Program-made: the position numbers and the translations under genes
Shown: positions 19,541 through 53,604 of the stretch, one piece after another
Layout of the letters: every line of letters starts with the position of its first letter
How positions within the stretch are numbered: position 1 is the stretch's first letter
DNA from: Naegleria gruberi
Lineage: Eukaryota
Direction: 5' to 3' (one strand)
NCBI GenBank assembly: GCA_000004985.1
Contig: GG738848.1
DNA length: 64,000 nt
The notes under the pieces: model-generated
The model's database searches: none
Seen by the model: the letters and a program-made list of their open reading frames with translations, nothing else
Told to the model about the DNA's origin: nothing

Positions 19541-19613
19541 GGGGTCTTGGCGCAGTCGGTAGCGCGTAGGTCTCATAATCCTAAGGTCGTGAGTTCGATC
19601 CTCACAGACCCCA
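19541..19613 (+). tRNA. tRNA-Met (elongator, CAU), inverted copy of the gene at 16226..16298.
   Basis: Same sequence as the 16226 gene. About 45 bp of 5' flank is also conserved in inverted orientation. Confidence 0.85.
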
Positions 19614-19937
19614 TCTTTTTTGCATCCTTTAATTTCCAACAATGAGTGGACAATAAGTCCATAATTACACAACTTTCAGGATAATCCTTAAAACATCAAC
19701 TTCAATCAGTGAAATATGTTAATAACCCTTAGGTCAACCTTGATGTATTTCTAAAACTGTCACTTCACTTTAGCATAGTACTTTTTAATGTATTTTGCGT
19801 TAAAATGAGGCGCAAGTGCAGATAGGAACACTATCTCAATCCCTCTTTCAACTCTTCTGCAAAATGAAATCTTGGGTTTAGTGATTTTCCAAAAACAAAT
19901 AGACGGATATGTCAGAAATTTGTTATTAATAATGTTA

Positions 19938-20009
19938 GGGACCATGGTCTAGTGGTATGATTTTTGCTTTGGGTGCGAGAGGCCGTGGGTTCGATTCCCA
20001 CTGGTCCCC
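19938..20009 (+). tRNA. tRNA-Pro (UGG).
   Basis: GGGACCA..TGGTCCC acceptor and anticodon loop CTTTGGGT. Matches the canonical eukaryotic tRNA-Pro. Confidence 0.85.
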
Positions 20010-20102
20010 TTATCTTTTGTTTTAAAAGAAATCATTAAGGTACAGTTTTGCAAACCTCAGTAATATTTTTAGAACATTTCAATTCCAAAATTGTAAAATG
20101 TC

Positions 20103-20174
20103 TAGCAAATCTAGGTTTCGATCCTAGGACCTATGGGTTATGAGCCCATCGCGCTTCCGCTGCGCCAATTTGCT
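20103..20174 (-). tRNA. Initiator tRNA-Met (CAU).
   Basis: AGCAAAT..ATTTGCT acceptor, GGCGCAGCGGAAGCGC D-arm, GGGCTCATAACCC anticodon arm, and the initiator-type T-loop GATCGAAACC. Confidence 0.85.
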
Positions 20175-23677: not shown

Positions 23678-25405
23678 TTAATAATTAAAATCAAAGGGAG
23701 GAACATCATCAAGATGATGACGAGGATTATCAGTCGAACAACAAATAATAGGAAGGAGAGCTTCAAATAGGCTTTCATCTTCATGCATCCAAGCTGGTAA
23801 TAACATTGAATCATCAACCTTCCTATCTTCCTCTTCTTCATCAAATAGGGAAATATTATGGTGTTTCAAGTAATCTTCAAACACCTGACAATCATCCAAA
23901 TGTTCATAAGGTTCCCAAGTCTCATCTGGATAACCCAACCATTGAATATGATACAAGTAGGATTTTCTAGATTGATCACTTCCCTTGAATACTTTTTCAT
24001 GGTCAACAATAACCTTGATGGTATATTCCTCTGTGGTTGGTTTGGGTTCATACTGTTGATATTCCTCTTCATCACTTTCCTCTTGTTTATCATCACCACA
24101 TTCATTGAAGAGGGCATAATTTCTCTTGATAGGTTTTCTCTTCTCTGTGAGGATTAAACTCTGGTCAAGGCAATCATCACCAAGCTTCTTCTTCATTCTC
24201 TGGCTTTGATAGTAGGGATGGTCAGCTTTGAAAGCATTGAGTGCTTGCCTTTGTCCCATTCCACAATAGACCTTGCTGTGTTTGAAATGTGAACGATGAG
24301 CAAAAAAGATGAAGGAAAATCTCTTCTGTTCATAATCATTGGAAGGCTCTTTGGATGATTGAACTGGGTTGTCTCCATCAGTGGGTTCTTGCTTTGGACA
24401 AGTATTGATAAGAGTTGGAGTATTATCATCAGCTTGAGGATTATTCAATGTTGGAGAAGAATTTTCACAAATTTTCACATCATCAACTTCAGTTTGGGAA
24501 GAATTGGCAAGTGGAAAACTTTGAGGACGAGTTGGAGAAACAGCATGACGATACTTGTTAGCTCTCAGCAAGACAACATCACCTGCTTGAATGTGGACAA
24601 GTGTTTTTGGAGTATGTTCATTCACTCGAATCAATTGAAGGGATCCACCTCCAAATTTTCCCATATAGAACATGGCAGAGATTCCCATATCATTTCTGTC
24701 ACGATGATTTGTCTTTGGACGATTGACTTTATCTGTAGACTTATATGAGCCTTGGAATTTCTCCTTGACTGATTCATTTCTTGTTGGAATCATGTTGAAA
24801 CATACAACTGGAGTTTGACCTCTTTCTGTCAATTTGGATAATTTAGCAAATAGTTTGGGATTTGCCAATTCCAAAATATGTTGAAAGGTATCATGTAAGA
24901 GAGCTTGTATCTGTTTCACTTTGGTATCAACTAGCTCAAATCGAAAGCTATCAGCACATTTGTATCCCATTGGCATATTCATTGTCCACCATCCAGAAAA
25001 GAAACTTCCCTTATCAATATCCTTTTCAGTAGCTAACCATTCACTCATCTCCCTACAAAGTTGAGTGCATTCTTCCAATAGACTTGGAGGCAATACTGAT
25101 TTCAACAAGGCCATTTCAACCATTCCTTCTTTTGTGACGATAATAGTATTTGAGGAGATTTCTTTTGGAATGGTATCATTTACACCATATACTGATAGAA
25201 TGGGTTCATTGGATTGAATATTATTTCCTTTAAGGAATTCCCATTCTTTTATCATTTTGTAAACTCTAGTTTTACCAGATTCATCTATGCTTTTCTCATT
25301 TTCCCAACACACTCTTGTTAAGGCTTGAGCTTTCAAAAATTGTTTCTTTCGTCTTCTGTGTTTGGGTTTCTTCTTGTCGTGCTGAGATACATGCAGTGGA
25401 CCCAT
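23678..25405 (-). CDS. AlkB-family 2OG-Fe(II) dioxygenase fused to a C-terminal chromodomain.
   Basis: HRDRNDMGISAMFYMGKFGGGSLQL...IQAGDVVLLRANKYRHAVSP...RFSFIFFAHR gives the HxD...H...RxS dioxygenase pattern. The C-terminus has YTIKVIVDHEKVFKGSDQSRKSYLYHIQWLGYPDETWEPYEHLDDCQVFEDYLK, a chromo fold. Confidence 0.65.
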   Translation of the reverse strand: MGPLHVSQHDKKKPKHRRRKKQFLKAQALTRVCWENEKSIDESGKTRVYKMIKEWEFLKGNNIQSNEPILSVYGVNDTIPKEISSNTIIVTKEGMVEMALLKSVLPPSLLEECTQLCREMSEWLATEKDIDKGSFFSGWWTMNMPMGYKCADSFRFELVDTKVKQIQALLHDTFQHILELANPKLFAKLSKLTERGQTPVVCFNMIPTRNESVKEKFQGSYKSTDKVNRPKTNHRDRNDMGISAMFYMGKFGGGSLQLIRVNEHTPKTLVHIQAGDVVLLRANKYRHAVSPTRPQSFPLANSSQTEVDDVKICENSSPTLNNPQADDNTPTLINTCPKQEPTDGDNPVQSSKEPSNDYEQKRFSFIFFAHRSHFKHSKVYCGMGQRQALNAFKADHPYYQSQRMKKKLGDDCLDQSLILTEKRKPIKRNYALFNECGDDKQEESDEEEYQQYEPKPTTEEYTIKVIVDHEKVFKGSDQSRKSYLYHIQWLGYPDETWEPYEHLDDCQVFEDYLKHHNISLFDEEEEDRKVDDSMLLPAWMHEDESLFEALLPIICCSTDNPRHHLDDVPPFDFNY

Positions 25406-29412: not shown

Positions 29413-29460
29413 TTTTTTAGATTAATTGTAAAGTTGTCAACCAAGATGTTAATGTGAAAA

Positions 29461-30341
29461 TTATTGTTGATGACTTCCGAAGAGAGATTGTGCTCTGGTG
29501 AGTGTCTTGCTCCAAAATAAATTTCTTAATAAACTTCCTTGATTGTCTGATGAAGTGGAAGATGAATCACTTGTCTTGACTGTTGAATTTTTGTCTACAT
29601 TATGATTAGATGCAGTATCAGAAGGAGTTGCAGTAGATTCAGAAGGAGTGACATATTCTTGGCTACTTTCATATTTTGAAAGAATTTTCAATAATTGTTG
29701 AGTTGATTTTGGAGAAATCTTATTTGGAAATTGAATATTGAAATAAATGACCAAATCCCCAAATGTTTCATCCTCTGTTGGCATTCCTTCTCCTTTAACA
29801 CTTTTCAAATGAATTAGAATATTCCTTCATATGAAATCTCTTAAACTTACACATGAAAATAATCTGGAGTAATTAAATTTTGACTATTATCAATTCTAAC
29901 ATCCAACTTTTTCACACCAAATAAATCAATTTGAAAAGAAACCAATTCACTTGTCAATGCTTCTTTCAGAGTAAGAGTATGAACATATTTCAAATGCTCC
30001 TGATCAGGTCCAACTCTCTCCAATTTTAAATCCTTTTCCTTCACTGGTTCCACAATTACAACCAAATCACCAGTTGATGAATTTCTATCCTTTACCTGAT
30101 CATCAAATTCACCTTCTCCTTCAAAAACAATTCTTTTCCGATATTTAAATCCTCTGGGAATTTGTATTTCCCTCTCCACCAACATGGACATGGATTGTCC
30201 TTGAATTCTAACCTTCCGAATGAAGGTAATTAATTTGTTACAACCAAAATATAATTCCCTGAGAGTACATGGGAGAGAAACATAGATATCCAACACAGAA
30301 TTGGTTCGGAATATTGGTGATTCTTCTATTTTAAAATTCAT
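29461..30341 (-). CDS. DnaJ/Hsp40 C-terminal (substrate-binding plus dimerisation) domain protein lacking a J-domain. Exons 30341..29851 and 29800..29461, with a 50-nt GTAAGT..AAG intron.
   Basis: ...LTLKEALTSELVSFQIDLFGVKKLDVRIDNSQNLITPDYFH|VVKGEGMPTEDETFGDLVIYFNIQFP parallels the DNAJB CTD (REAL...G.G.P...GDL..F.V.FP). Confidence 0.6.
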
Positions 30342-30550
30342 AATATTGAATCTTTCTAAAAACAAGTATTTAATGTTTTGGCAATTTTTTTCAATTTTAA
30401 TAATTAATTTTAATAATTTAATCAATTATAATATCAATTAAGAAGTTCTTGAAGGGTTTATCGCGGATATCTAAAAACTCTATTACTGAATCTAATCTCA
30501 ATCATTTTCCATCAACCACTTTAACAAGGTTTCCAAAACCTGAACGTATA

Positions 30551-31177
30551 TCAGAAACTTACCTTAAATGGGTCAATCCAGCTTTCCTTTCTAGAAATAG
30601 TACAATAAAACAATTTCATTGACCTTTCCAATTCTGGGTTGTTAAAACGATCTCCCAAGTTCTCCTCAATTTCCAATACTTTCTCTAAATTTCCAACTTG
30701 TCCATCCTTTAATTTATCGCAATGAGTTCCTAAGATAACTATTGGAACATTTTTCACTTGCTCAATTTCCATAATTTCTTTTAAGGTTTCCTTTGCTTCC
30801 TCAAACCTATTTGTGTCTGCACAATCAACACAATAAACAATTCCACTCAAAACATTTGAATGCAAATCAGTAAGGTTATTTTTCCATTCTTTTTTTCCAC
30901 AGGTATATCCACCATAATCATAAAGATGCTTAATTCGGACATGTTCAGTTTCGATCTGTGCTTGTTCTGCATTAATCATTTTCAATAAATTTGTTTTATC
31001 ATATTCGGAATCAATTAACAATTAATTATAGAAAATTTAAGAAACTCTACCATAAACAATAGTTGGAGGATGGACAGAAATTCTGTTATTGAGCAGATAG
31101 CCAAAGATTGTTGATTTTCCTGAATTCGTTGGTCCGAGGAGGATAACATGATCGAGAAAGGAATGAGAGAGACCCAT
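30551..31177 (-). CDS. Arf/Arl-like small GTPase with degenerate G-motifs. It is two exons; the intron junction near 31010–31060 is uncertain.
   Basis: MGLSHSFLDHVILLGPTNSGKSTIF matches an Arf P-loop. In place of WDVGGQ and NKxD it has YDYGGY and GTHCDK. The C-terminus is an Arf-like helix. Confidence 0.5.
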
Positions 31178-31398
31178 TTTTTTTAATGTTGTAAATAAGG
31201 TCCAACTGTTTACAATATATGATGTATTGAGATAGAGCTTATTCTCTAAAAGTATTCTTAGTGGTTTTTTGAATCGCCTGTTTGAACCAGATTTGTTTCT
31301 TCGTACAGGTAAGTATGAAGGACAAGTTGAAGGAGTGGCTATGAGGAAGGGCCTCAACCAGTTGTATTGTCCTAACAGTTAGAGATATTCATTTCAAA

Positions 31399-32517
31399 TT
31401 AATGAATAAAATCAAGAATAATGTCATCTAATCGTCTCATTTGTAAAGCTCCATGTAAATTATGTTTAAAATCATTATTTGGAATTACAAAAAGAGGTAA
31501 ATCAAACCTGTGAGTAATAAAACACTTTCTAGGTGAATTAGCTCCTATGGCTAAACAATTCAGTAATTCCTTCATATCAGAATCATGGGATGTATTCACA
31601 ATATGATATTCATATGTTCTATTTGGATAGCTGTTGTCTTGGTTATTTATCATTACTTTCAATGTCTCTGTAATGAGAGAATTGATGATTAGTGCACAGT
31701 CTTTCTTTAATCTATTCAATTCTTTACGAATATTTGGATCTGTATTTCCTTGATATTTAACACCCAATTTTATCCTTTCCTGGAAAACATCCGGGTGAGT
31801 AAATATCAAAATTATTCTATAGCAAGTAAATTTAGAAAGTCTTTTACATTCATTGAAATAGGTATTCAAATATTGAAGATTATCATAATCAGATAACGAA
31901 AATGAGACTGCAACCACATCAGCCCAAGTGTCACAAGAAAAACAATTTGCAAAAAGCTCAAAACTCAATTGATTGGTTTTGTAAGGATAATTGCTAGTTT
32001 TTGTGGAATAAGCACATGTAAGATATCTTTGATTTGTGAACACAGGCTCAAAAAAACAAGTTCTCTTCACATTAAATTGACTTCCTCTTTCCAGATATGA
32101 ACACAATGTTGGTAATACCAAATATGGATCCAATTTAAATCGATTTTCAAAATATTCCTCTCTAAAATTTGGTTGACTCCACAATTCCACTAATAATTCC
32201 GCCAAACTCATTCTCTCCATTTGATGTTCATGAAAATAATGAGGCAAATGTTTGCACAAATGATCACAAATAAATAATAATTCTTCACGTAACAATTTTT
32301 CATCCGATTGTTTGTATTTGTTGTAGGTTTCGTTGGTAGTAGTGCAAAATTCTGATAGATCTCCTCGATGAAGAGACATTATTTGATCAGCCAAGCCTTG
32401 AAAAATCACAACAGAAGGTCCTCCTGCAATTAGAAAATATTGGTGGTGGTATTCATTTGTGTTGGAGTGATGTCCTGAATTGATATGCTTGGTTGGAAGA
32501 GAATTGTTTGCACCCAT
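31399..32517 (-). CDS. Divergent G-protein alpha-subunit-like protein with an N-myristoylation motif and degenerate GTP-binding motifs.
   Basis: Start is MGANNS from tacaaaaaaATGG. DVVAVSFSLSDYDNLQYL matches Gα (A)IIFCVALSDYDQVL, and RIILIFTHPDVFQERI matches SIILFLNKKDLFEEKI. The P-loop is reduced to LIAGGPSVV. Confidence 0.55.
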   Translation of the reverse strand: MGANNSLPTKHINSGHHSNTNEYHHQYFLIAGGPSVVIFQGLADQIMSLHRGDLSEFCTTTNETYNKYKQSDEKLLREELLFICDHLCKHLPHYFHEHQMERMSLAELLVELWSQPNFREEYFENRFKLDPYLVLPTLCSYLERGSQFNVKRTCFFEPVFTNQRYLTCAYSTKTSNYPYKTNQLSFELFANCFSCDTWADVVAVSFSLSDYDNLQYLNTYFNECKRLSKFTCYRIILIFTHPDVFQERIKLGVKYQGNTDPNIRKELNRLKKDCALIINSLITETLKVMINNQDNSYPNRTYEYHIVNTSHDSDMKELLNCLAIGANSPRKCFITHRFDLPLFVIPNNDFKHNLHGALQMRRLDDIILDFIH

Positions 32518-33480
32518 TTTTTTGTAATAGATCAGCAATTACAACAGCACTACACATCATACCACCAAACAGCAATGCAAAGGTACTCACTGACAGTGAA
32601 ATAGCGGTCAAAATAATTAACAACACAAATTACAAAGGTCAATTTAAGCAAATCAAAGATGAAATTACCAACCTCATCAGCACTAAAAAACTTCAAGCAT
32701 CCATCGAATGGACAAAAGCTCATACAGGAATAACAGATGGAAATAACTACGCTGATAAGAAAGCCAAACAAGCCTCACGAATAGGACATCGAATTGCACC
32801 CCAACATCTACTAACTCAAGGGCAATTAATTATCACCAATTCGAAAAAAGTTTGGAAAAGTAGAATCAAAGGAGTACTTAGGGAAAAGCTCTACGATCAA
32901 GGAACATCCGAACTCATCAACAGAACAAATCTCAATTACCTCAAAGAACATACCACCCCAACTCACAAATACTCAATCTGGAGGCTCATGATAAATGGAC
33001 ACTTAAGAAGCCTCATAGTAGACAACCCACAATGCCCAACATGTAACAAAAACCTTGACACAGAACACCTCTTCATAGAATGCCCAGAAATGAATTCAGC
33101 AAGAAACTGGATGATTGAAGAAATCAAAAAAAATCAATCTCGAACCAGTACTAAGCACAGAGAGGACAGAAATATTAACACCAAACTCATTCCAACTGAA
33201 TATCTTTGGTATTCTGACAAAACCTATTCAAGGTATTATCAAAGAACAATGGCCCAAGATACAAGGAGGCCTCTCACTTTTTGGAGGAAGAGTACAAAAA
33301 CAATACAACAAAATCTTAAAAATTCAATAAGACGTTCCAAATGGACGAACCCGTCGGGTTCATTCGATTAATAAACGTTTAAATTTTTTTGTAATAGAAA
33401 CTGGAATTTTATGTACTAATAAAATTAAAAAATAAATAGTTAAATATTAAACAAACGCGTCACCACCAAATCATTTGGTG
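32500..33480 (+). mobile_element. 5'-truncated non-LTR (LINE) retrotransposon fragment carrying the ORF2 RNase H tail plus a Cys-rich C-terminal motif and a 3' UTR. It sits tRNA-proximal, as TRE3-like elements do.
   Basis: VLTDSEIAVKIINN...ASIEWTKAHTGITDGNNYADKKAKQAS is the RNase H DxxE...H...D tail. CPTCNKNLDTEHLFIECPEMNSARNWM is the zinc motif. The element ends about 40 bp from the 3' end of the tRNA-Arg on the opposite strand. Confidence 0.7.
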
Positions 33481-33520: not shown

Positions 33521-33594
33521 TACCGACAATGGGGCTCGAACCCACGACCCCAGGATTAGAAGTCCTGTGCTCTATCCAACTGAGCTATGACGGC
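33521..33594 (-). tRNA. tRNA-Arg (UCU). The acceptor stem has one U•U mismatch.
   Basis: GCCGTCATAGCTCAGTTGGATAGAGC..CTTCTAA..GGGTTCGAGCCCCAT..TGTCGGTA. Confidence 0.7.
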
Positions 33595-53365: not shown

Positions 53366-53437
53366 AGCAAATTGGCGCAGCGGAAGCGCGATGGGCTCAT
53401 AACCCATAGGTCCTAGGATCGAAACCTAGATTTGCTA
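53366..53437 (+). tRNA. Initiator tRNA-Met (CAU), copy B.
   Basis: Identical to the 20103..20174 gene. Confidence 0.85.
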
Positions 53438-53532
53438 TTCATTTTACAATTTTGGAATTGAAATGTTCTAAAAATATTACTAAGGTTTGTAAAACATGCA
53501 CCCTTAATGTTTACATCTAAAACTAAAGATAA

Positions 53533-53604
53533 GGGGACCAGTGGGAATCGAACCCACGGCCTCTCGCACCCAAAGCGAGAATCATACCACTAGACCATGG
53601 TCCC
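53533..53604 (-). tRNA. tRNA-Pro (UGG), copy B.
   Basis: Canonical TCTCGCTTTGGGTGCGAGA anticodon arm. Copy A has two C-to-T changes that convert pairs to G•U in that stem. Confidence 0.85.

Follow-up and report, generated by a model that had tools for sequence, protein, structure and literature searches.

We examined a pair of neighbouring genes in a 64,000-nucleotide (nt) stretch of Naegleria gruberi DNA (contig GG738848.1 of assembly GCA_000004985.1; hereafter, the window). The first, NAEGRDRAFT_62775, encodes a Gα-like protein and the second, NAEGRDRAFT_62774, an Arf-like protein. A first-pass annotation had described both as degenerate G-proteins, encoded side by side on one strand, and the open reading frames (ORFs) bear out their adjacency and positions and lie on the minus strand. 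With a probability that we put at roughly 60%, the two genes are independent, lineage-specific offshoots of the very large G-protein repertoire of N. gruberi and are neighbours by chance, the Gα-like protein being a nucleotide-free pseudo-Gα and the Arf-like protein a GTP-binding Sar1 paralog. Judged by their motifs, the class of nucleotide-free pseudoGTPases would take in the former protein, which has the motif loss that marks the class, but not the latter. Coordinates are collected in Table 1.

The ORF of the Gα-like gene extends from its first ATG at 32517 (MGANNS) to a stop at 31399, and the chance that 372 codons would stay open at a G+C content of 33.5% is ~4e-13. Over the span that they share, its product is 100% identical to the predicted N. 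gruberi protein XP_002682159 (P0001). The RefSeq model, to which no domain is assigned, begins at Met47 and thus drops the MGANNS start and the remnant of the P-loop (32380-32517). However, the 46 omitted residues are conserved in a 360-amino-acid paralog from N. gruberi (P0002), which is 54% identical to the Gα-like protein and shares with it the segments MG..., SLPT.H and EY..QY..IAGGPSVVI.QGL.DQI.S. We therefore consider the longer model to be correct.

Homology of this protein to Gα is established, although its score against the Pfam G-alpha model (PF00503) is only 16 bits, compared with a cut-off of 48.8 bits (P0002 scores 30 bits), and although a PDB sequence search with a profile of two Gα-like sequences returned no match at E ≤ 1. 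An exhaustive HMMER search of 1.84e9 cluster representatives (E ≤ 1e-3) found 11 relatives; all those with a named source are from Naegleria (N. gruberi and N. lovaniensis), and the others are metagenome or Logan contigs. When nine of the relatives were scored with Pfam G-alpha, six gave 62-172 bits, whereas P0002, P0008 and P0011 gave 27-39 bits, below the cut-off. A homolog search with the family alignment found three proteins only, and a metagenome scan with an alignment of the clade that has THPD at G4 yielded no confirmed relative. The first-pass annotation had proposed aligning the two proteins to the Arf and Gα families, and each found its place: the Arf-like protein scores 71 bits with Pfam Arf (PF00025; cut-off 22.3), and hhalign matched the clade of the Gα-like gene, over residues 102-368, to a Gα-family profile (A5) at 99.7% (E 8e-27). 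That profile was built from Pfam-positive Naegleria Gα proteins and human Gα-i1. An AlphaFold2 (AF2) model based on a 10-sequence alignment has a mean predicted local distance difference test (pLDDT) score of 54 and is confident for residues 200-340 only; when this low-confidence model was used as a Foldseek query, the top 50 PDB matches were all Gα proteins, albeit weak ones (E 6e-4 to 2e-2).

The relatives share an MGxKxS (also MGxxxS) start, the motifs SLSDFD, R-x-I-L-x-F-T-K-P-D and E-Y-H-I-V-N-T, and a C-terminal extension of ~45 residues that contains F-I-S ... C-D-I. The Gα-like gene belongs to this Gα subfamily, which is restricted to Naegleria and typically has TKPD at G4. One further THPD-type relative, P0004, is the sole one found outside the N. 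gruberi reference. It is a 137-amino-acid C-terminal fragment that is 43% identical, and the 1.1-kb metagenome contig that encodes it (L004; ENA ERZ4903137, k141_1223563) has an Arv1 gene beside it. This fragment points to an unsampled, related heterolobosean with the same pseudo-Gα clade.

The MGANNS start, the replacement of the P-loop (IAGGPSVVI for GAGESGKST, given in the first-pass annotation as GGPSVV for GESGKST) and THPD in place of NKKD, all noted there, are present in the Gα-like protein. The degeneracy was nevertheless understated, as DVGGQ, ~10 residues of switch II and TCAT are also gone, and the αN helix appears to be absent. At G1, the alignment of IAGGPS--VVI with the canonical P-loop leaves the Gly-Lys pair deleted and the Ser/Thr replaced by Val. 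At G3 and switch II, the nine residues FELFANCFS stand, with a gap of ~10 residues, for F-x-x-F-D-V-G-G-Q-R-S-E-R-K-K-W, so that ELF-ANCFSCDTW is found where a canonical Gα has FDVGGQRSERKKW, and DxxGQ is absent. The Asp alone is kept at G4, where the wider subfamily has TKPD, and TCAT has become VNTS at G5. The αN element of a canonical Gα is a helix of ~30 residues; here, residues 1-34 are rich in His and Asn, and AF2 predicts no helix for them (pLDDT <35). Seven helices are modeled between residues 35 and 150 (pLDDT <60), and a conserved L-W (W113) aligns with the L-W (…RLWKD…) in the helical-domain region of human Gα-i1; an all-helical domain therefore probably persists in the predicted fold, albeit with low confidence. 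The consensus for N-myristoylation (PROSITE PS00008) is G-{EDRKHPFYW}-x(2)-[STAGCN]-{P}, and the MGANNS start fits it. The absence of G1, DxxG, the NK of G4 and TCA supports, at the level of sequence, the proposal of a nucleotide-free pseudo-GTPase scaffold for this protein.

The GTPase motifs appear to erode progressively across the subfamily, with the Gα-like gene and its paralog as the end point. P0010 has GTSDSGKST at G1, DVGGQR at G3 and VKPD at G4. P0013 and P0007 keep the P-loop and TKPD, and both have lost the catalytic Gln. G1 is lost in P0009, which has TKPD at G4, as well as in P0011, which has TKAD. In the Gα-like protein and P0002, both G1 and G3 are lost and G4 reads T-H-x-D, the form also seen in the P0004 fragment, which does not span G1 and G3. 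The sequences that took the place of G1 and G3 (IAGGPSVVI and FELFANCFS) are each identical at nine of nine positions in P0002, which suggests that the replaced regions acquired a constraint of their own, given that the two paralogs are 54% identical overall.

The Arf-like protein presents a different picture. In PDB sequence searches it is matched best by Sar1a, Sar1b and yeast Sar1 (70-74 bits); a miniGq construct (48 bits) and Arl3 (43 bits) come next. Hence, the label "Arf-like" holds for membership of the ARF family, as the Pfam score indicates, but not for an Arf-type protein, given the 74 bits to Sar1 and 43 to Arl3. The protein has in fact been catalogued: under the name NgrSar1d, XP_002682158.1 appears, with its model revised, in the survey by Vargová et al. 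(2021; supplementary files 2 and 4 of PMC8358228), where it is among the four Sar1 genes in the 36-member ARF family of N. gruberi. Their IQ-TREE phylogeny, the sole tree behind the assignment, placed it in Sar1, and their model leaves the N-terminus open upstream and ends at ...KVSF (PMC8358228). On these sequence grounds, we identify the Arf-like gene as that of NgrSar1d (hereafter Sar1d), a divergent extra Sar1 paralog. It is ~28% identical to NgrSar1a. In NCBIfam, Sar1d had only sub-threshold matches to generic small-GTPase and bacterial GTPase models, and the Gα-like protein had none. A metagenome scan with Sar1d gave no confirmed relative.

Two losses described in the first-pass annotation of Sar1d need to be narrowed, although both the MGLSHSF start (at 31177) and the THCD at G4 are indeed there. 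The protein was said to lack WDVGGQ, and YDYGGY is what we found; the core of G3 is kept, however, as D59-Y-G-G62, and the residue that is lost is the catalytic His of Sar1 (Gln in Arf), which is Tyr63 here. Similarly, NKxD has become THCD through replacement of the Asn and Lys by Thr and His, while Asp126 is retained. The P-loop is intact (GPTNSGKS, which matches GxxxxGK[ST]), the switch-I Thr is kept as Thr39, Trp70 is present and G5 is Sar1-like (YCTIS). The residues that contact phosphate and Mg2+ and the Asp that specifies guanine are thus all retained, and to call Sar1d a pseudo-GTPase was an overstatement. Of the two states that had been suggested for it, GTP-locked is plausible and nucleotide-free is not indicated. 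Sar1d is probably an atypical GTPase that would bind GTP and hydrolyze it poorly, rather than a motif-dead protein. It also appears to be without the amphipathic helix of Sar1, since only nine residues (MGLSHSFLD) precede β1, compared with 17-25 in NgrArf1a and NgrSar1a. The MGLSHS start fits the PS00008 consensus as well, and Sar1d would reach membranes by way of an N-myristoyl group instead of the helix.

Our gene model for Sar1d has three exons. The product of exon 1 (31177-31051) begins MGLSHSFLDHVILLGPTNSGKST, and removal of intron 1 is required because an in-frame stop would be read if it were left unspliced; the resulting junction, PPTIVY/EQAQ, agrees with the revised model of Vargová et al. 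The gene most likely runs past 30551, where the first-pass annotation had ended it, into a third exon. Without splicing, the protein would end in ...PFKVSF, whereas removal of the proposed 44-nt intron gives ...PFKWLMEND and, with it, the F-(R/K)-W-L that starts the C-terminal helix in Sar1 and Arf. In an alignment with NgrSar1a, NgrSar1b and NgrArf1a, W178 and L179 are invariant, and addition of exon 3 raised the score to human SAR1A from 67.2 to 74.3 bits, the alignment now running through F-K-W-L. An intron of this size is normal here, since the neighbouring DnaJ_C-domain gene has a 49-nt intron, which, in a comparison of window DNA with the RefSeq model (P0015), shares the GTAAGTTT donor and ends in an acceptor of much the same kind (...AAAG). 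A 23-nt intron from the same Sar1d donor was discarded as too short, and it would have left the frame and C-terminus unchanged anyway. At the other end of the gene, the ATG at 31177 is supported by a second N. gruberi-like strain, represented by a metagenome contig (L001; ENA ERZ929261, k127_53595) that we compared with window positions 29447-32481: four codons before the ATG it has a stop, which closes any extension of the ORF, and just upstream there is a net 7-nt indel.

The RefSeq model XP_002682158 (P0015, 372 amino acids) is without exon 1 of Sar1d, and exon 2 is spliced into the middle of the DnaJ_C domain. We rejected this fusion because the 44-nt intron yields the conserved C-terminus of the family; the fusing splice also deletes the start of the DnaJ_C domain. 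An alternative acceptor ahead of that domain, judged by eye, leads to an immediate stop. Consequently, XP_002682158 is regarded as a chimeric prediction, and the real gene as one for a 183-amino-acid Sar1 paralog with an MG start.

Comparison of the two strains gave a different result for each gene. L001 is 98.3% identical to the window over 3 kb. Indels within coding sequence have lengths divisible by 3, and those in the flanking DNA do not. The contig stops at window coordinate 32481, ~50 nt before the retroelement boundary described below, which fits an assembly break at a repeat. Sar1d differs by two synonymous and four non-synonymous substitutions, so that omega, which for each gene rests on two strains and six substitutions, is ~0.5 and indistinguishable from neutrality (p = 0.34). 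In addition, 12 nt are deleted in frame from L001 Sar1d, which costs it precisely W70-K-N-N in switch II/α2, and with it a Trp that is invariant among the Sar1 and Arf sequences compared. Selection on Sar1d thus looks relaxed between the two strains. The gene might accordingly be a dispensable duplicate, without a specialized GTPase role and heading for loss; N. gruberi has three other Sar1 genes, and a word-indexed search of 5.8 billion proteins found only the cluster of Sar1d itself. On the other hand, each strain has an open frame and undamaged splice sites at both positions, the coding indels preserve the frame, and every nucleotide-binding residue is retained. We consider this explanation somewhat unlikely, but it is the one that survives best next to that of a functional, GTP-binding Sar1 paralog.

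The Gα-like gene, in contrast, differs between the strains by five synonymous substitutions and one non-synonymous substitution over 1080 nt (omega ~0.05), and the probability that at least five of the six would be synonymous under neutrality is 0.0014. It is under purifying selection between the two strains. This result bears directly on the possibility that the ORF is a pseudogene decaying by neutral drift and perhaps silenced by the retroelement at its 5' side. Such a reading would account for the loss of every G motif, for a retroelement fragment 18 nt from the ATG, for the truncated and domainless RefSeq model and for the lack of a close ortholog from other sequenced Naegleria species among the 1.84e9 representatives searched with HMMER. 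However, the ORF of 372 codons is intact, the low omega and the conserved replacement blocks disfavour decay, long stretches, the replaced G1 and G3 among them, are invariant between the gene and its paralog, and a third THPD-type relative (P0004) is present in a metagenome. We therefore regard a pseudogene as quite improbable; by its sequence, the Gα-like protein is most likely a selected, nucleotide-free, myristoylated pseudo-Gα.

The first-pass annotation had also implied a link between the two neighbours, and in its strongest form they would function as a pair, the members of a pseudo-GTPase module that interact or are regulated together. They lie on the same strand with a 221-bp spacer, both have an MGxxxS start, and both have T-H-x-D at G4 (THCD and THPD); among the ARF-family sequences of PMC8358228, NgrSar1d is the only one with the string GTH.D. 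Their adjacency is also seen in L001, but at 98.3% identity such synteny is little informative, and the loci of three relatives of the Gα-like gene (L002, L003 and L004) have no Sar1 or Arf neighbour. The surrounding genes are unrelated to either protein, and the two genes come from different expanded families. Given 44 Gα genes (PMC8584482), 36 ARF-family genes (PMC8358228) and many other small GTPases in a compact genome, a chance adjacency is unsurprising. As for the shared T-H-x-D, the Gα subfamily already had the Thr at G4 in its ancestral TKPD, which leaves the His as the one residue newly held in common, and the likeness of the two motifs may be coincidence. A functional pair thus appears very improbable, and it is unlikely, in the bolder reading, that the Gα-like protein works with the adjacent, hydrolysis-impaired Sar1d.

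Finally, the idea that missed exons restore canonical motifs can practically be dismissed: although both RefSeq models are wrong (one truncated, one a fusion) and a missed exon was indeed found in Sar1d, that exon encodes only the C-terminal WLMEND, a scan of the minus strand from 29 to 36 kb gave no GxxxxGK[ST] or DxGG beyond those in Sar1d, the Gα-like ORF runs without a break from an MGxxxS start that lines up with the starts of its relatives, and P0002 has identical degenerate motifs. The motif loss, for which the first-pass annotation had named such exons as the refutation, therefore stands.

Several observations weigh against our interpretation of two independent offshoots, a pseudo-Gα and a GTP-binding Sar1 paralog. 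The significant hhalign region does not reach the first 100 residues of the Gα-like protein, in which the putative remnant of the P-loop is found, and the AF2 model is poor overall. The strain comparison amounts to six substitutions per gene. For Sar1d, an omega of ~0.5 and the loss of W70-K-N-N would fit drift towards loss no less than a functional gene that evolves fast. With the retroelement only 18 nt away from its ATG, the Gα-like gene may have a disturbed promoter, and the adaptor or decoy mechanism that we outline next is inference only.

P-loop GTPases cannot do without the Lys and Ser/Thr of that loop. Since both are absent from the Gα-like protein, it would bind no guanine nucleotide and so would not cycle. 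Nor would it engage Gβγ canonically, because αN and switch II, the two main contacts, are missing. With low mechanistic certainty, we envisage a myristoyl-anchored, nucleotide-independent adaptor or decoy, which would act through the conserved α3-α5 half of the Ras-like domain together with the C-terminal module of the subfamily; it would perhaps compete with nucleotide-competent members of the subfamily for a shared partner. A tentative generalization, which we think possible though not favoured, is that the whole THPD-type clade (the Gα-like gene, P0002 and P0004) consists of selected, fully nucleotide-free, myristoylated pseudo-Gα proteins without P-loop, switch II and αN, a reduction that would exceed that of plant XLGs, and which would signal or scaffold through the Naegleria-specific C-terminal module.

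Table 1. Features of the two genes and of the adjoining elements, in window coordinates
Feature	Coordinates	Strand	Basis and remarks
Gα-like gene (putative pseudo-GTPase)	31399..32517	-	ORF; single exon, 372 codons + stop
P-loop remnant IAGGPSVVI (residues 30-38)	32404..32430	-	MAFFT alignments; positional equivalence only
G3/switch II remnant FELFANCFS (residues 186-194)	31936..31962	-	Alignments
G4 remnant THPD (residues 240-243)	31789..31800	-	Sequence and alignments; NKKD/NKxD in Gα
G5 region HIVNTS (residues 305-310)	31588..31605	-	HFTCAT in Gα
Arf-like gene NgrSar1d, three-exon model	30498..31177	-	Proposed; 183 amino acids
Sar1d exon 1	31051..31177	-	MGLSHSF start; intact P-loop GPTNSGKS (31112-31135)
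Sar1d intron 1	30967..31050	-	84 nt, GT..AG, phase 1
Sar1d exon 2	30563..30966	-	End of switch I; YDYGGY (30905-30919); THCD (30716-30727); G5 region YCTIS
Proposed Sar1d intron 2	30519..30562	-	44 nt; donor GTAAGTTT at 30562; acceptor TTGTTAAAG (30519); intron end TTAAAG
Proposed Sar1d exon 3	30498..30518	-	21 nt; WLMEND + stop; beyond the first-pass span
5'-truncated retroelement fragment	32535..33371	+	C-terminal part of RNase H + downstream Cys-rich region
DnaJ_C-domain gene, downstream neighbour	29461..30340	-	Pfam DnaJ_C, 46.6 bits

On the minus strand, the gene order is Gα-like, Arf-like and DnaJ_C-domain gene. The product of the last, whose intron lies near 29800-29850, may be a J-less DnaJ C-terminal-domain protein, no J domain having been seen nearby. 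The Gα-like gene had been described as lying immediately beside a retroelement fragment, which is correct: a plus-strand match to Pfam RNase_H (32535-32777), which scores 37 bits and covers positions 49-140 of the 141 in the profile, begins 18 nt away from the ATG of the Gα-like gene, and the two are divergently oriented. The ORF of this non-LTR element ends at 33371, ~150 nt from the 3' side of a minus-strand tRNA-Arg(TCT) gene (33521-33594), a layout reminiscent of the TRE retroelements of Dictyostelium, which target tRNA genes. Within the window, we found neither a second copy of the retroelement nor further paralogs of the Gα-like gene or Sar1d. The window as a whole (G+C ~33.5%) has 11 tRNA genes, which span 16226-58125; five of the 11 are tRNA-Met(CAT), with a Met/Pro cluster seen repeatedly, at 19541-20174 and again at 53366-53604. 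The remaining neighbours are unrelated housekeeping genes, which include those for ribosomal S9/S16, a chromo-domain protein, YIF1, a mitochondrial carrier, a short-chain dehydrogenase, a methyltransferase, DUF4116 and G8. The only domain match in a 575-amino-acid ORF (23678-25405, minus strand) is a chromo domain at the C-terminus (28.8 bits with Pfam Chromo); the ORF could encode a chromatin protein or be part of a chromodomain-bearing mobile element.

Part of this picture was already known, as Sar1d is catalogued (NgrSar1d) and degenerate Naegleria Gα proteins have been reported; in this respect, the finding is real but fairly ordinary. A search of the main texts of papers for the locus tags and accessions of the two genes found none. 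New would be the recognition of NAEGRDRAFT_62775 as a Gα-derived, fully motif-dead but selected protein, together with the description of the TKPD/THPD subfamily and the corrected models of both genes. The immediate use is two corrections to N. gruberi database entries, XP_002682159 (N-terminally truncated and Gα-derived) and XP_002682158 (chimeric). Furthermore, the graded erosion, from a canonical P-loop and DVGGQ to none, is a natural series for asking which parts of Gα are useful without nucleotide cycling. G-protein signalling is under study as a drug-target area in N. fowleri (PMC9283941). The practical relevance of the present genes is limited, because the searches turned up close orthologs of neither gene beyond N. 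gruberi-like strains.

Among known systems, Sar1 is the family to which Sar1d compares. The two share GIVF/Y-x-VDCAD, F-(R/K)-W-L, the P-loop, the switch-I Thr, DxGG and the G4 Asp, but Sar1d differs in having Tyr63 for the His, THCD for NKxD and a myristoylation-type MGLSHS start instead of the amphipathic helix. The Gα-like protein, for its part, resembles established pseudoGTPases, such as the p190RhoGAP domains (PMC5593906) and AAGAB (PMC12490416), in keeping the GTPase fold while losing nucleotide-binding motifs, and in its presumed role in protein-protein interaction. These examples, however, belong to Rho-like and other families and have been validated biochemically and structurally, whereas the Gα-like protein is assigned to the class from sequence alone.

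The nearest relatives are those of the lineage-specific Gα expansion in Naegleria, which has been reported previously (PMC8584482; de Mendoza et al., 2014, PMC3971589). According to PMC8584482, which cites Anantharaman et al. (2011), N. gruberi has 44 Gα proteins, and some Naegleria Gα proteins have deviated catalytic motifs. The Gα-like protein comes from the same organism and superfamily, has an MGxxxS start and the conserved Leu-Trp, and is homologous, transitively and by profile-profile comparison, to Pfam-positive Gα proteins of N. gruberi and N. lovaniensis. It differs in degree, since this gene and its paralog are extreme in having lost all four of G1, G3, G4 and G5.

The closest analogue of a "working dead Gα" is found in plants, where XLG1-3 are atypical Gα proteins with degenerate nucleotide-binding motifs and a nucleotide-independent function (PMC8584482). 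Like the XLGs, the Gα-like protein is derived from Gα and has been retained despite the decay of its catalytic motifs. Unlike it, however, the XLGs carry a large N-terminal extension with a Cys-rich region and a nuclear localization signal, their P-loop is altered but recognizable, and they still bind Gβγ and RGS1, whereas the Gα-like protein appears to have neither αN nor switch II, the canonical Gβγ contacts, and has a C-terminal extension that is specific to its subfamily. The origins of the XLGs and of the Naegleria pseudo-Gα are independent. If the generalization to the THPD clade is true, this clade would be a second, independent natural instance of a working dead Gα, beyond the plant XLGs.

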